A stretch of 64,000 bases of DNA from Thermodesulfobacteriota bacterium (lineage in GTDB: Bacteria > Desulfobacterota_D > UBA1144 > Nemesobacterales > UBA2774). Both the position numbers and the translations under genes were made by a program. The stretch's first letter is position 1. Each line of letters begins with the position of its first letter. The stretch is from the NCBI GenBank assembly GCA_963422265.1, contig OY729416.1, positions 1,440,001 through 1,504,000 of the forward strand. Reading direction: 5' to 3'. This document shows, one piece after another, positions 35,244 to 52,775 of the stretch. A model generated the notes under the pieces. It had not been told where the DNA came from. It saw only the letters and a program-made list of their open reading frames with translations, and did not search any database.

Positions 35244-35488
35244 AGATTCCTCAGACTCAGAATGACAGGGATGAGGGACGAAAGACACGCGGAAATCGTC
35301 TCCTGAGGGGGCTTATCCCTGCAGTTATATTAAGCAGGGACAGGAATCCAGGGGGGGATAGAGAAACCACGCCTGTTCCCAACCCGATTGGGAACAGGTT
35401 ACCCCTACAGCTTAGAATAATGAAAGAGAGTTAAAGAGAGAAGATAAAACCCTGAAACGAGTTCAGGGCAGGCAGGGCTAGAATGACG
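35244..35488. repeat. Cluster of palindromic REP-like elements
   Basis: gattcctcagactcagaatgac; caggaatccag; perfect IR cctgttcccaa/ttgggaacagg (35372-35398); ccctgaaacgagttcaggg (35450-35468). Confidence 0.7.
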
Positions 35489-43010: not shown

Positions 43011-44567
43011 ATGGAAGAAGAAACAAAACTCATCAAATACGATTTGAGGTCGGTTTTTTCAAAACTAAGCGAGGGTGAGAATAAAGGGCTGGAGATATTA
43101 ATAAAGCAGGCTATTCGTCAGGACGAAACAACGGCAAGATGCTTTCCTACGCGCTTTAAACCTGAAACTGAACGGACGGAACACCAAGCTAGAAAAGCAT
43201 CCTGGAAAAAGGTTTTAGAGATTATAGAGAGAAAGTCCAATCCGCAGGTATTCTCTTGGTTTACCCCTCTAAAAGCTTTGGTAGAAAGCGAAAAGAGTCT
43301 TGCTCTTGAAGCGAGCAGCGAGTTTGATAGAGACTGGATAAACAACAATTACATGGGTTTTATTAAAGAGGCTGTGGAAGAATTATACGGCGACGCGGTC
43401 GAGCTGAAAATCGTATCGCCCCTTCAGCAACCCCAGGACCGGGAGGACCAGGACACTACGCTCCAAAACACATTTAGCCATGGAAAAGAATCCGCTCCTA
43501 AAGGAGGACACAAAAAACGTGACGAAGGACACCCAAAATTAAACCCAAACTACTCATTCGACAGATTCATCGTAGGGCCTAGCAACCAGTTTCCCCATGC
43601 TGCTTCAGTAGCAGTCGCAACTAATCCGGGCAAGGCTTATAACCCCCTATTTATTCACGGAGGGGTTGGGCTTGGCAAAACACATTTACTTAACGCAATT
43701 GGGAACTATATAAAAAGCTCACAGCCCAATGCAAGGATATGTTGCATCTCAGCAGAGAGTTTTACAAATCAGATGATAAATAGCATAAAGTCTAACAGAA
43801 TGGAAGAGTTTAGAAGCAGATACAGATTCGGGTGCGATGTTTTATTAATTGACGACGTGCAGTTCATTGCAGGAAAGGAAAGCACGCAGGAAGAATTTTT
43901 TCATACCTTCAACACCCTTTACGAATCAAAAAAACAGATTGCGCTTACAAGCGATAAATCCCCAAAGGATATGTCGTATTTAGAAGAGAGGCTCCGCTCC
44001 AGATTCGAATGGGGACTCATAACCGATATACAACCCCCAGAGACCGAAACCCGGACAGCTATCATAAAGAACAAGACGGATTCAGAAAGAGTCGCGGTTT
44101 CAGATGAAGTAGCACTTTATTTAGCTAAAAACACATCTTCAAATGTTAGAGAGCTTGAGGGGATGCTCACTAACATAATAGCCCGCGCAAGACTGCTGAA
44201 TACCGAAATTTCACTAGAACTTGCTAAAGACGTTCTAAAGACCATTGTAAAAAAACAGGAAAAGAAGCCTCTTACCATAGAATTTATACAAGGAGAGGTA
44301 GCTAAATTCTACGGATTAAAGATAAGCGAGCTAAAATCTGAAAGAAAGCAGAAGAATATAATCCAGCCTAGACAAACTGCAATGTATTTAGCAAGAAAAT
44401 GTATAGGGGCATCATATCCTGAGATAGGTGAAAAATTCGGTGGCAAGGATCACTCCACCGTTATCCACGCCGTCAAGAAAATAGAAAAGAATCTAGCCGA
44501 AGACCACTCCTTAGCAAAGACCTTGGATTTCTTCTCTCAAAAATTTGAAACGTTAACTCAGGAGTAA
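43011..44567 (+). CDS. dnaA: Chromosomal replication initiator DnaA
   Basis: YNPLFIHGGVGLGKTHL, LLIDDVQF, RLRSRF, FGGKDHSTVIHA. Confidence 0.98.
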   Translation: MEEETKLIKYDLRSVFSKLSEGENKGLEILIKQAIRQDETTARCFPTRFKPETERTEHQARKASWKKVLEIIERKSNPQVFSWFTPLKALVESEKSLALEASSEFDRDWINNNYMGFIKEAVEELYGDAVELKIVSPLQQPQDREDQDTTLQNTFSHGKESAPKGGHKKRDEGHPKLNPNYSFDRFIVGPSNQFPHAASVAVATNPGKAYNPLFIHGGVGLGKTHLLNAIGNYIKSSQPNARICCISAESFTNQMINSIKSNRMEEFRSRYRFGCDVLLIDDVQFIAGKESTQEEFFHTFNTLYESKKQIALTSDKSPKDMSYLEERLRSRFEWGLITDIQPPETETRTAIIKNKTDSERVAVSDEVALYLAKNTSSNVRELEGMLTNIIARARLLNTEISLELAKDVLKTIVKKQEKKPLTIEFIQGEVAKFYGLKISELKSERKQKNIIQPRQTAMYLARKCIGASYPEIGEKFGGKDHSTVIHAVKKIEKNLAEDHSLAKTLDFFSQKFETLTQE

Positions 44568-44804: not shown

Positions 44805-46067
44805 ATGAGATTTAGAACCCAAGTAGAAAATTTCTCGTTAAGACTAGGGTTGGTTCAGGGTATTTCTGAAAGGCGCGCCGCCATGCCAGTATTATCCCAC
44901 GTCCTAGTTACAGCCAAAGAAGACAAGATAGAGATTTGCGCGACAGATTTAGAAACCACAATGGTGACCTGGTGTCCGGCTGACGTCGTGCAGCAAGGTA
45001 GTTTAGCCTTGCCAGCGAGAAAGCTGTTTGAAATAGTGAGGGAGTTGTTAAGCGGAGACTCTGCCCGTGAAGGAGAGATTGAAATAGATGAGATAGGCAA
45101 CCATTGGGTAGAGGTTAAATCTCTCTCCACGAATTTTAAGATAGCCGGGTTGCCTAGCGAAGATTTTCCTATAATTCCTGAGTTTAAATCGGATTCCCTT
45201 CTCTCTCTAAAGAGCTCCGTTGTTGAAGCAATGATATCAAAGACTATATTTGCGGTGTCCTCCGATGAGCTAAGAAGAAACTTAGCCGGGATATTTTTTG
45301 ACGGGAGCAATGCCCCAAACCAGTCTTTAGAATCCACCCGTGAGGGATCCCAAGGCAGCTCCCTAAGGTTGGTAGCGACTGATGGGCATCGCTTGTCTAT
45401 CGTAGAAAATAGTATGGACGTCGTCACTAATCTTGACAAACAAAGTGCCGTTGAGGGTGAACAGGTGGTTCAAGATAGTGAAGACGCCAGTCCAGAACTT
45501 ATTTTAGGTTTTGGCGAAGGTTTTGTCGTTCCTAAAAAAGGGGTTGCTGAGCTTAGAAAGATTTTGAGGCTATCAGAAACCGTTAGGATAGGACTGGGGG
45601 AGAATTTCTTCACGGCTGAAGGCGAAGAGATAATACTTATTTCAAGGCTAATAGACGCTGAATTTCCCAATTATGAGCAAGTTATTCCTAAATCTTCTAA
45701 GACAACTATTATAATTACTCGTAGTGAGTTTTTAGGTGCTCTAAAGAGGGTATCTATACTTTCATCTGAAAAAACCAGGGGTGTAAAGTTTAAATTAGGT
45801 CAGGATGGCATAACCCTAGTTACCATATCTCCAGAAGTAGGGGAGGCTAAGGAACTTGTGCCGGCAGAGTATTCCGGAGAGCCTATGGAGCTTGGATTTA
45901 ACTCAAGGTATTTATTGGACGTTTTAGAGGTAATAACTCATGATAAGGTGCAGTTAGGTCTGACGGACGAGCTCAGCCCTGTCGTAATCAAGCCTGATCC
46001 TGAAACAAGTTCTGGACTGGTTGAAGGGGAGTCTTACCTGTCCGTTATAATGCCTATGAGGATTTAA
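44805..46067 (+). CDS. dnaN: DNA polymerase III beta clamp, with insertions (420 aa)
   Basis: ATDLE, VATDGHRL, SRLIDAEFPNY, GFNSRYLLD, IMPMRI. Confidence 0.97.
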   Translation: MRFRTQVENFSLRLGLVQGISERRAAMPVLSHVLVTAKEDKIEICATDLETTMVTWCPADVVQQGSLALPARKLFEIVRELLSGDSAREGEIEIDEIGNHWVEVKSLSTNFKIAGLPSEDFPIIPEFKSDSLLSLKSSVVEAMISKTIFAVSSDELRRNLAGIFFDGSNAPNQSLESTREGSQGSSLRLVATDGHRLSIVENSMDVVTNLDKQSAVEGEQVVQDSEDASPELILGFGEGFVVPKKGVAELRKILRLSETVRIGLGENFFTAEGEEIILISRLIDAEFPNYEQVIPKSSKTTIIITRSEFLGALKRVSILSSEKTRGVKFKLGQDGITLVTISPEVGEAKELVPAEYSGEPMELGFNSRYLLDVLEVITHDKVQLGLTDELSPVVIKPDPETSSGLVEGESYLSVIMPMRI

Positions 46068-46080
46068 TCCCCCCCATTAT

Positions 46081-46863
46081 ATGTTGGACCTGCTATTCCC
46101 TAATACGTGTGCTTACTGCGAAAGGATGACCACCGAATGCTATAGCCGAAATCACCAATTGTTAGGAAGCAAGGCTATATGTGATGAGTGCAGTGGCAGC
46201 ATAAGATTTATAGATAGGTTTTCCAGTTGCTCTAAGTGTGGGGTTCCATTCGGCTTTTTCGTATCTTCCGCCGAGCATTCTCCGATTACCCATGAATCAG
46301 AAAATAACTCGGCTACGAATAATCATTTATGCTCCGACTGCTTAAAAGGGAAATTCCATTTTAATAAGTCTAGGTCCGTTGCTTTATACGAAGGCAAAAT
46401 AAGAGATATGATTCATAAGTTTAAGTATGATGGGTATTTGGTTTTTGGAGATTCCCTGTCCGACGTATTGGTAATGAACTTGCCTCAAGACTTGGATGAG
46501 TTTGAGTTGATAGTTCCCGTTCCACTCTACATAGGTAAACTTAGAGCAAGGGAATTTAATCACTCAGCCATCTTCGCCAATGCGTTATCCCGTTCTACCG
46601 GGGTGAAGTGCGATGTTATGGGGCTAAAGAAAATTAGAGAAACAAGACCACAATTTCAAATTAAGGGTGAGATTGAAAGGCAAAAGAATGTAAAAGGGGC
46701 ATTCTCTGCTCCTGTTCCACACAGTTTCAGACGTAAGTCGGTACTGATTGTGGATGATGTGTTTACAACCGGATCAACTAGCGACGAGTGTGCTAAAATC
46801 CTGTTTAGATCGGGGGCGTCTCTGGTTCAAGTACTCACGATTGCAAGGGCGAAAGCTATGTAG
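46081..46863 (+). CDS. comF: ComF-family protein (zinc ribbons plus PRTase)
   Basis: LLFP..C..C, VPVPL, REFNHS, IVDDVFTTGST. Confidence 0.88.
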   Translation: MLDLLFPNTCAYCERMTTECYSRNHQLLGSKAICDECSGSIRFIDRFSSCSKCGVPFGFFVSSAEHSPITHESENNSATNNHLCSDCLKGKFHFNKSRSVALYEGKIRDMIHKFKYDGYLVFGDSLSDVLVMNLPQDLDEFELIVPVPLYIGKLRAREFNHSAIFANALSRSTGVKCDVMGLKKIRETRPQFQIKGEIERQKNVKGAFSAPVPHSFRRKSVLIVDDVFTTGSTSDECAKILFRSGASLVQVLTIARAKAM

Positions 46864-51563: not shown

Positions 51564-52775
51564 ATGGGTGGAGGTCAATTCATGGCTGATAAACTAACAA
51601 TTAACCCTCAACGCATTAAATGTATGATGGAAATCTTCGGGCTTTCTGAAGGGGATTTGTTAGAACTAGTGAGCACCGGATTAAAGAATAAAATTAGAAA
51701 AGAAGCAGTTTTCACGCCGCATATTAAAAAGAGTCATCTTAAAAAAATTGATGAGGTATTTTCCAAGGGCCTTTCTTTTTATACGGATCCCGAAGAACTA
51801 AGAAAGGAAAGATTATCCAGCGTATTCTTTAGAAAAGATAATTTCAACTCAGATATTGCGTTAGGTGATAGGCAAATTGTCCATAAAATGGAAACAAGGA
51901 TTCATTCCTTATCTGCTCTGTCGAAACTCTCGGGTTATGAAATTGGAAGGAAGCTAAACATATTCTCAGTTACTGATAGTCCGGAAGAAGTTGCTAGTCA
52001 AGTTAGAGAAAACTTACATCCGGATAAACAAATAAATAGAGATAGGGATTTTTTAAGAGCATTAATAGATAAGCTTGCTGAGTATAATATCTTAGTTTTA
52101 GAGTTTGTCGAAAGCTGGAATAGAAAAAACAAATCCAATATAAACGGTTTTTTTATTACTCCTAACAATATTGTTATCAAAAGACAGCAAAACTCTCTCA
52201 AGAGAGAGATATTTACACTAGCGCATGAACTGGGGCATTATCTCTTAAACGATGAGCAGTTAGATAATATACAATTTAACCAACCCCAAGAGAGTAAAAA
52301 CATAGAAAACTGGTGTGATAGCTTCGCCTTTGCCTTTCTAGTTGGATATAGGGAGATAAAAGGCTTAAAATCAATATCTTCTGATGTTAAATATAATGAT
52401 GCGCAAATAGAAGCTATCTCCAAGCAACACCATATCAGTCGTTTGGCCTTGTTTGTCCACTTAGCAATAAATAAACGAATAGCTTGGGAGGGATATAATA
52501 AGCTCAAATCTGATCTTGAAAAGGAATACGACGCCAAGAAGCAAAGGGAAAAAGAAGCGGAGAAACAATTGAATAAAGAACATGGGAAAACAGTAGGATA
52601 CGGTAGTTCTAAACCTATTCCGTCTCCATTGGAAAAGGATATTTATACAACGGCTTATTGTGAAGGGGTTATTGATGAATATGAAGCCTTATCTTACTTC
52701 AACAAAAATATCCCTTCGACAGGCTCAGGACATCCCTCAAAGCAGAAAAGCTTAGACGATTTCCTCTATGAATAA
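51564..52775 (+). CDS. ImmA/IrrE-family metallo-endopeptidase
   Basis: FTLAHELGH, E.WCD.FA..FL; AT-rich. Confidence 0.85.
   Translation: MGGGQFMADKLTINPQRIKCMMEIFGLSEGDLLELVSTGLKNKIRKEAVFTPHIKKSHLKKIDEVFSKGLSFYTDPEELRKERLSSVFFRKDNFNSDIALGDRQIVHKMETRIHSLSALSKLSGYEIGRKLNIFSVTDSPEEVASQVRENLHPDKQINRDRDFLRALIDKLAEYNILVLEFVESWNRKNKSNINGFFITPNNIVIKRQQNSLKREIFTLAHELGHYLLNDEQLDNIQFNQPQESKNIENWCDSFAFAFLVGYREIKGLKSISSDVKYNDAQIEAISKQHHISRLALFVHLAINKRIAWEGYNKLKSDLEKEYDAKKQREKEAEKQLNKEHGKTVGYGSSKPIPSPLEKDIYTTAYCEGVIDEYEALSYFNKNIPSTGSGHPSKQKSLDDFLYE

Follow-up and report, generated by a model that had tools for sequence, protein, structure and literature searches.

Probable in-frame copies of a dispersed stem-loop repeat in the sliding-clamp gene of a Dadabacteria-like bacterium

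Results

The window analysed here, a whole stretch of 64,000 nucleotides (nt) from a Thermodesulfobacteriota assembly (contig OY729416.1, positions 1,440,001 to 1,504,000), contains dnaN, the gene for the beta sliding clamp, preceded by dnaA (43011..44567), and dnaN itself harbors two inverted copies of a short stem-loop repeat (Table 1). The genome studied (G000; L, P and further G numbers denote loci, proteins and genomes of relatives, and X1, X2, X3 and X6 are sequencing runs) is a single contig of 1,783,595 bp with 44% G+C, with a single match for dnaN. The nearest named relatives of its DnaN are from ‘Candidatus Dadabacteria’ and Thermodesulfobacteriota metagenome-assembled genomes, and the host is referred to as Dadabacteria-like.

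Four insertions in DnaN

The clamp of this organism has 420 amino acids, compared with 366 in each of the same-family orthologues extracted. Of 31 relatives from outside the species that were aligned, 29 have 366–368 amino acids, the two others being L003 (391 amino acids) and L019 (383). A preliminary description of the window had pointed to an over-long DnaN with four extra segments; protein and codon alignments, to 17 and then to 31 relatives, bear this out and resolve 54 additional residues into four insertions, spanning residues 84–89 (insert 1, 6 residues), 166–179 (insert 2, 14 residues), 213–238 (insert 3, 26 residues) and 399–406 (insert 4, 8 residues). Insert 1 is common to the host and the L003/P0036 lineage, which has an unrelated 17-residue insert at site 4; inserts 2, 3 and 4 are restricted to the species-level clade of the host. 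Insert 4 comprises exactly 24 nt and can be read as PETSSGLV (45999–46022; CCTGAA...GGTT) or, with equal fit to the relatives, as DPETSSGL (45996–46019; GATCCTGAA...CTG), the latter leaving a native KP|VEGESY whose counterpart in L043 is KPLEGEDF.

An AlphaFold2 model of DnaN (mean predicted local distance difference test score (pLDDT) 78.8) matches solved clamps with template modelling scores of 0.82–0.89, normalised by target length. Its pLDDT falls below 50 at residues 86–88 (insert 1), 169–184 (insert 2) and 207–235 (insert 3), so that inserts 1–3 appear as low-pLDDT segments between regular strands or helices; insert 4 falls into a block (residues 401–410) with a mean of 60. All four insertions lie in low-confidence loops of the model, where surface loops had been anticipated. 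Unrelated inserts occur in the same clamp loops of other Dadabacteria DnaNs (P0065, P0067, P0073, P0081 and P0042), including 32 residues with an internal tandem duplication at site 1 of P0065 and 14–20 residues reading ...ERSE...EG at site 3 of P0067, P0073 and P0081. These loops are recurrent insertion-tolerant sites.

Table 1 Features of the window bearing on the repeat and its insertion into dnaN
Feature	Coordinates	Strand	Evidence	Remarks
dnaN (beta sliding clamp)	44805..46067	+	Open reading frame; Pfam PF00712, PF02767, PF02768	420 amino acids; three beta-clamp domains
Insert 1, GDSARE	45054..45071	+	Alignments	6 amino acids; boundary slidable by one codon
Insert 2, DGSNAPNQSLESTR	45300..45341	+	Codon alignment	14 amino acids
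Insert 3, QSAVEGEQVVQDSEDASPELILGFGE	45441..45518	+		26 amino acids; composite: unexplained left part, repeat copy A and 12-nt tandem duplication
Repeat copy A	45487..45508	+	Position weight matrix (PWM) 22.6 bits; nhmmer E 0.085	Tag-first on + strand; read (A)SPELILG
12-nt tandem duplication	45506..45517	+	Direct repeat D11, spacing 12	GFGE beside GFVV
Insert 4	45996..46022	+	Codon alignment	8 amino acids = 24 nt = one repeat unit
Repeat copy B	45999..46020	-	PWM 20.4 bits; nhmmer E 3e-4	Tag-first on - strand; read PETSSGL
Intergenic family copy CCTGAAACGAGTTCAGGGCAGG	35451..35472	+	PWM 39.9 bits	Second best in genome; outside open reading frames of at least 90 amino acids
Weak, doubtful family match in DnaA domain-II linker	43421..43442	+	PWM 16.4 bits	Read PLQQPQDR
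Family copy with CCTTCGAC-type stem	52713..52734	+	PWM 16.6 bits	Read PSTGSGHP

Copies A and B, which lie in the last third of insert 3 and in insert 4, are reverse complements of one another at 20 of 22 positions, as the preliminary description had stated. None of 150 codon shuffles of dnaN contained an inverted match of this quality (the maximum was 19, in six shuffles), and none of 100 window shuffles contained the two 22-mer matches. The same description had also drawn attention to an xxEG word common to all four inserts (SAREG, STREG, SAVEG and GLVEG). The words are present where they had been placed; they carry no evidential weight, because the direct repeat underlying SAREG and STREG (15 of 19 positions) is at chance level, with 93 of 150 codon shuffles reaching at least 15. 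The 19-nt word common to inserts 1 and 2 has no other occurrence in the genome, and codon alignment indicates that the VEG of ‘GLVEG’ is probably native sequence. For inserts 1 and 2, as for the left part of insert 3, blastn-short gave no match below E 0.1 in the genome, and nhmmer gave none to the hidden Markov model of the repeat family. In Smith–Waterman comparison with the repeat unit, inserts 1 and 2 gave no signal. The left part of insert 3 gave a weak one in reversed orientation: its score was equalled in 7 of 500 shuffles before correction which, with six tests of this kind, lacks significance.

A dispersed family of stem-loop repeats

To place the two dnaN copies, a PWM was trained on 15 family copies outside dnaN, with the reversed genome as control. 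At 20 bits or more, there are 43 matches in the genome and none in the control; one reversed match appears at 16 bits or more, and at 14 bits or more the numbers are 70 and 5. A degenerate 20-mer pattern allowing up to two mismatches finds 58 copies. The repeat is thus a dispersed family of about 60–70 copies, mostly intergenic, of which copies A and B are significant members. Fifty-two of the 70 copies lie outside any open reading frame of at least 90 amino acids and 18 inside, although such frames cover 87.6% of the genome (binomial P = 1.6e-32). The intergenic hairpin at 35451–35467, whose core had been reported to match the dnaN element, does so at 15 of 17 positions and belongs to the second-best family member genome-wide. 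The copies are clustered: the contig's final 83 kb holds 23 of the 70, and its first 100 kb another 10.

Written tag-first, the unit reads [C/T]GTC-(A)-CCTGAA-CTYGT-TTCAGG-ATC, with a CGTC or TGTC tag, a stem of 6–8 bp and a loop of 5 nt. Two intergenic copies (genome positions 564051 and 26454) have the form CGTC-ACCCTGAA-TTYRT-TTCAGGGT-C, with an 8-bp stem and a 5-nt loop; most others have a stem of 6–7 bp and a loop of the same size. The stem exists in two versions, a CCTGAAAYGAGTTCAGG-type with unrelated flanks and a CCTTCAACAAGTTCAGGACATC-type within longer composite repeats. Among 14 intergenic CCTGAA-type copies in G000, the tag is CGTC in two, TGTC in five, GGTC in one and absent from six. 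Rfam at gathering scores returned just one tRNA across the whole window and nothing at the repeat copies, and literature searches for the peptide read-outs and DNA words of the repeat returned nothing relevant; one for repeats of Dadabacteria returned none on these, though it did list the paper on CGTC-tagged REPs (PMC3733652) discussed below. A distinct and more abundant palindromic repeat, TCCCCCTTTAGAAAAGGGGGATTTGATAG, also occurs genome-wide (for example at 1772500–1780500 of G000; L069), its 12-mers being counted about 110–138 times; it often adjoins CCTTCAAC-type family copies.

Copies in other host genes

The suggestion that the family adds loop peptides to core proteins other than DnaN holds for two further genes. 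The CCA-adding enzyme (genome positions 1702498–1703913; assigned by Pfam) contains an 8-residue insertion, (D)PSASSGH(R), that is made by the same 24-nt unit as insert 4 of DnaN. This insertion occupies the turn of a beta-hairpin, and 23 of 23 relatives lack it. The third host gene encodes a class-II-like ribonucleotide reductase (1619268–1621886), in which the linker before the C-terminal zinc finger is about 28 residues longer than in same-family relatives and holds the family copy read as PFNRLRTR. By contrast, the dnaN, cca and nrdJ loci of relatives (433 kb) contain no PWM match of 16 bits or more, and the dnaN genes of 31 relatives contain no nhmmer match to the family below E 0.3. Within the window, the copy read as PSTGSGHP (Table 1) lies 12 residues before the stop of a 403-residue Peptidase_M78/IrrE-like open reading frame (51564–52775; Pfam).

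Conservation between strains

Three studies supplied the runs (X1, X2, X3 and X6) whose contigs cover the dnaN region; one run is near-identical to the host sequence and may be the source of the assembly. These contigs retain all four inserts, as does protein P0001, which is 96% identical. Empty-site alleles were looked for in the same contigs and not seen; since contigs drop rare variants, this result carries little weight either way. X1 and X6 have C at 45505, which restores the family TTTCAGG in copy A, and A at 46018, with which copy B is 21/22 identical to the common variant CCTGAAACAAGTTCAGGACAGG. Since both are the family consensus states, the ancestral copy B matched the common variant at 21 of 22 positions. 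X6 further differs in copy A (45498 C>A). X1 is missing 12 nt at 45506–45517, corresponding to one unit of the tandem repeat GGTTTTGGCGAA/GGTTTTGTCGTT; insert 3 has therefore also grown by slippage.

Spread among relatives and flanking of GIY-YIG genes

The family pattern is found in 0–194 copies in each of 40 relatives, compared with 0–3 for a backwards control pattern, the maximum being 194 in G002; G019, G012 and G016 have 85, 50 and 45. At least 120 stretches of a species-representative collection, spread over many phyla, contain the exact 22-mer CCTGAAACRAGTTCAGGACAGG; the matches listed include Bacteroidota, Saccharibacteria and other Patescibacteria, Caldisericota, Elusimicrobia, Cyanobacteriota, Nitrospirota, Nitrospinota, Planctomycetota, Alphaproteobacteria, Thermodesulfobacteriota and others. 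The flanks of this 22-mer vary by host and are often mutually complementary. Complementary flanking runs of at least 7 nt accompany 12 of 20 sampled copies in G002, compared with 17% in mismatched-flank controls; flanking stems are not enriched in G000 (1 of 14 and 2 of 26). The unit is very often seen at the apex of host-specific hairpins (loci L047–L066 in G002, and L126–L205 in many phyla), which include hairpins of its own kind (ATGCCGAA...TTCGGCAT).

In relatives, the family is associated with small genes for GIY-YIG proteins (84–130 residues; Pfam GIY-YIG scores of about 50–70 bits). At 4 of 24 such loci (in G028, G008, G009 and G005), inverted family copies lie on both sides, 26–92 nt from the domain, and three further loci have one copy within about 210 nt; none of four UvrC-type loci has a copy nearby. 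The cassette in G009 has the layout CGTCATCCTGAACTTGTTTCAGGATC - gene - GATCCTGAAACAAGTTCAGGATGAC, and the C-terminus of its nuclease (...DPETSSG-stop) is encoded within the right-hand hairpin, giving a peptide identical to that in DnaN. The copies flanking the cassettes in G009 and G005 carry the tags CGTCAT and CGTCAC. None of the cassette proteins matches an NCBIfam family over cut-off, and comparison with the Protein Data Bank gives a weak match to the UPF0213 protein 1zg2 (E 0.0085). A gene for a four-helix-bundle 23S-IVS protein was considered as a possible cargo and rejected: there was one such gene, and a search allowing up to five mismatches placed no copy of the repeat closer to it than about 380 nt.

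The preliminary description had envisaged a mobile family and had proposed a GIY-YIG, DUF559 or RAYT (a tyrosine transposase associated with REPs, the repetitive extragenic palindromic elements) gene as its mobiliser. The dispersal of the family and its uneven copy number among relatives agree with the former and the cassettes with the latter; in G000 itself, neither a small GIY-YIG gene nor a RAYT was found. Pfam detects just a 609-residue UvrC-like open reading frame, tblastn with four cassette nucleases gives a best E of 0.5, Y1_Tnp/RAYT (PF01797) is not found, and DUF559 is limited to one partial 22.9-bit match inside a 792-residue open reading frame. Because G000 has neither enzyme, its copies are regarded as orphans.

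Discussion

We consider it likely, and more so than any alternative, that two of the four extra DnaN loops contain in-frame solo copies of the repeat family, one of them forming the final third of insert 3 and the other the whole of insert 4. The unit corresponds to eight codons, and copies landing in surface loops of essential proteins would have been tolerated and then fixed, whereas most other coding insertions were presumably purged, leaving a strongly extragenic family. In relatives, a GIY-YIG nuclease may have spread the hairpins; the streamlined host genome would have lost the nuclease or never had it, and its roughly 60–70 orphan copies would now be drifting by point mutation and slippage.

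Several observations weigh against this interpretation. The motif is present in just two of the four inserts; neither inserts 1 and 2 nor the 46 nt on the left of insert 3 have a significant match, so that the earlier view of a REP-like family adding peptides to the clamp is supported for two loops and not for the remainder. Copy A is weak by nhmmer alone, and both dnaN copies carry AGTC in place of CGTC or TGTC and have stems degraded to 5/6 pairs. They may, moreover, not be independent insertions, as discussed below. No empty-site allele was seen in the contigs from three studies, albeit that these drop rare variants. Seventeen of the 24 small GIY-YIG loci have no copy near the gene by the search pattern used, and with no such gene in G000 no enzyme is tied to these particular insertions. 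Finally, family sequences depart from the degenerate search pattern published for Ssn-related motifs (SRM; see below).

The question of independence leads to an alternative that we consider somewhat unlikely, in which just one dnaN copy was truly inserted and gave rise to the other, inverted, inside the same gene, by template switching or local re-insertion, with later gene conversion preserving their likeness. Both copies have TTCTGG where the family has TTCAGG, a change that is synonymous in both frames and seen in no other family copy of G000. The dnaN copies may thus have a common source, or one may derive from the other, to judge by their sequence; TTCTGG could equally be the variant of a lost master copy. 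At 46018, the A of X1 and X6 has become T in the host strain, complementary to 45489 in copy A, and dnaN shows further duplication of a local kind in its 12-nt tandem repeat, which differs between strains. However, the similarity between the copies stops at the ends of the unit (extension to 29 nt lowers it to 83%) and is flanked by native codons, which is better accounted for by a discrete unit, and ancestral copy B matches the common family variant at 21/22.

The inverted copies might instead be kept for pairing with each other, in a long-range mRNA duplex or a DNA cruciform spanning 490 nt, and might serve regulation or recombination, for example in the manner of cassette ends. We regard this as highly improbable. 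The RNA arms would form 20 Watson–Crick pairs and one G–U pair over 22 positions, the host-strain changes keep or improve the duplex (46018 A>T adds a pair, and with 45505 C>T a G–C pair becomes G–U), and the orientation, a tag-first copy followed by a reversed one, is that seen around GIY-YIG genes. Yet 45498 C>A in X6 breaks a pair, there are two or three informative changes in all, the insertion in cca is single-copy, and G000 is without the nuclease.

It is likewise very unlikely that we are dealing with a classical REP whose mobility depends on a RAYT. The unit is short, palindromic and mostly extragenic, and some CCTTCAAC-type copies lie inside GTAG-ended hairpins, but the unit itself has no GTAG tag, and Y1_Tnp, not found in G000, was found in just 3 of 24 same-family genomes, unrelated to copy number and not in G019, G012 or G016. 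One G002 Y1_Tnp open reading frame (209 residues) does lie 0.9–2.7 kb from three unit copies (L122, G002:C8:96000-107000), and each of these copies is embedded in another palindromic element, ...ATTGCCGCGGTCGCGAT[unit]GGCGCTCCCTCGCAA....

Least probable of all is ordinary lineage-specific loop expansion by slippage or duplication with a coincidental resemblance to intergenic repeats: the unrelated inserts at the same loops (32 residues in P0065, 14–20 in P0067, P0073 and P0081, and 17 in L003/P0036), the slippage polymorphism in insert 3 and the motif-free inserts 1 and 2 would suit it, and it is the default for inserts 1 and 2, but for the right part of insert 3 and for insert 4 it is contradicted by two matches of at least 20 bits within a 1.26-kb gene, compared with none in the reversed 1.78-Mb genome, and by the exact one-unit lengths of insert 4 and of the 8-residue insertion in cca.

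In-frame solo copies, the explanation favored here, have precedents. Ogata et al. (2000) reportedly found Rickettsia palindromic elements (RPEs) in frame in housekeeping genes, whose products tolerate them as additional peptides on the surface. RPEs are long, about 100 bp or more, and RPE-1, the classical type, far exceeds 24 nt. The present family resembles these elements in being palindromic and tolerated in frame in housekeeping genes; it differs in its 24-nt unit, its Dadabacteria-like host and the use of the unit as a cassette end in relatives. It thus shows RPE-like behaviour without being a member of that group.

A closer parallel is provided by the CGTC-tagged REPs (Di Nocera, De Gregorio & Rocco 2013, BMC Genomics 14:522; PMC3733652), described in the main text of that paper as stem-loops of 20–40 bp inside genes of several species, with stems of 8–9 bp and loops of 4–5 nt. 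Many of the intragenic copies are in replication and global repair genes, without an associated RAYT; they were taken to be insertions by comparison with shorter homologues, a location in flexible loops was suggested, and the intragenic CGTC repeats of R. conorii were equated with RPE-4 and RPE-6. The main text, as distinct from the supplementary list of host genes, does not mention dnaN or polymerase III as hosts. As far as these descriptions go, the two families share a loop of 4–5 nt, the lack of a RAYT, and tens to hundreds of copies that are uneven between species and mostly extragenic, with some in frame; a CGTC-type tag at one end is seen on some of the present copies. Here, by contrast, stems are AT-richer and often of 6–7 bp, TGTC is at least as common as CGTC, and single 24-nt units make 8-residue loops. 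Tolerated in-frame REP insertions, those in replication genes included, are thus already known from that work; new here are the host lineage, the host genes, the minimal 24-nt unit and an AT-richer stem that is missed by the published pattern.

That pattern comes from the NTS/SRM hairpins, near which Ssn GIY-YIG nucleases, of Conserved Domain Database family cd10448, cut single-stranded DNA (Chenal et al. 2025, Nat Commun 16:2388; PMC11893778). The Neisseria NTS has the form CGTCAT-stem-loop-stem, and the arrangement NTS-ssnA-NTS has been likened to an insertion sequence. Judged by the passages of that paper drawn on here, the resemblance lies in this hairpin build, in inverted hairpins flanking a small single-domain GIY-YIG gene (in our case in relatives only), in hundreds of solo copies elsewhere and in occurrence across many phyla; the differences are that the host genome has no such nuclease and that the hairpin departs from the published pattern. 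The degenerate SRM pattern matches none of four cassette hairpin stretches and nothing in dnaN, and has six matches in the genome compared with three in its reverse. The sole convincing one is a single canonical NTS-like hairpin, CGTCATTCCCGTGAAAACGGGAATCTAG, at genome position 1668598. In-frame NTS/SRM copies inside essential genes do not appear in the passages of the same paper drawn on here. The family is also unlike GTAG REP/RAYT systems (REPtrons), given its lack of GTAG and the failure to find PF01797 in G000.

More speculatively, a cross-phylum GIY-YIG (Ssn-like) cassette might travel, in its smallest form, as the 24-nt hairpin, possibly with a preference for exposed DNA-hairpin loops, given that the unit sits at the apex of host-specific hairpins in many phyla. 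We consider this doubtful; if true, Ssn/SRM systems would extend far beyond those reported, because the version with AT-rich stems escapes the published SRM pattern, and the inverted dnaN copies would resemble cassette ends on either side of a 490-nt coding segment, a possible substrate for nuclease-driven recombination.

On the interpretation as solo copies, a selfish hairpin of 24 nt has entered the sliding clamp, the CCA-adding enzyme and the ribonucleotide reductase of a streamlined genome, and the cell survives. The insertions would provide a natural map of loops in these proteins that tolerate 8–26 extra residues, and they would account, in annotation, for over-long essential proteins and spurious small open reading frames in uncultured lineages. 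The link between an orphan repeat of one genome and the GIY-YIG cassettes of its relatives supports the published proposal that NTS-ssnA-NTS-like units are mobile elements.

Additional observations

DnaA of the host has 518 residues, with about 11 additional residues near positions 39–50 and a domain-II linker that exceeds that of L001. An insertion at the family match in this linker (43421) was rejected: the score is too low, and variation of the linker in all relatives precludes its delimitation. A CRISPR-like repeat, GTTTCAATCCCTTATAGGTAGTCAAA, is present in 58–59 copies by 12-mer count over the whole genome. Downstream of dnaN, the run of C residues after the stop codon (46068–46080, before an open reading frame at 46081) varies in length between strains, with four C residues added behind 46068 in X6 and one letter missing at 46069 in X1; poly-C is common in this genome, with a count of 202 for twelve C residues in a row.

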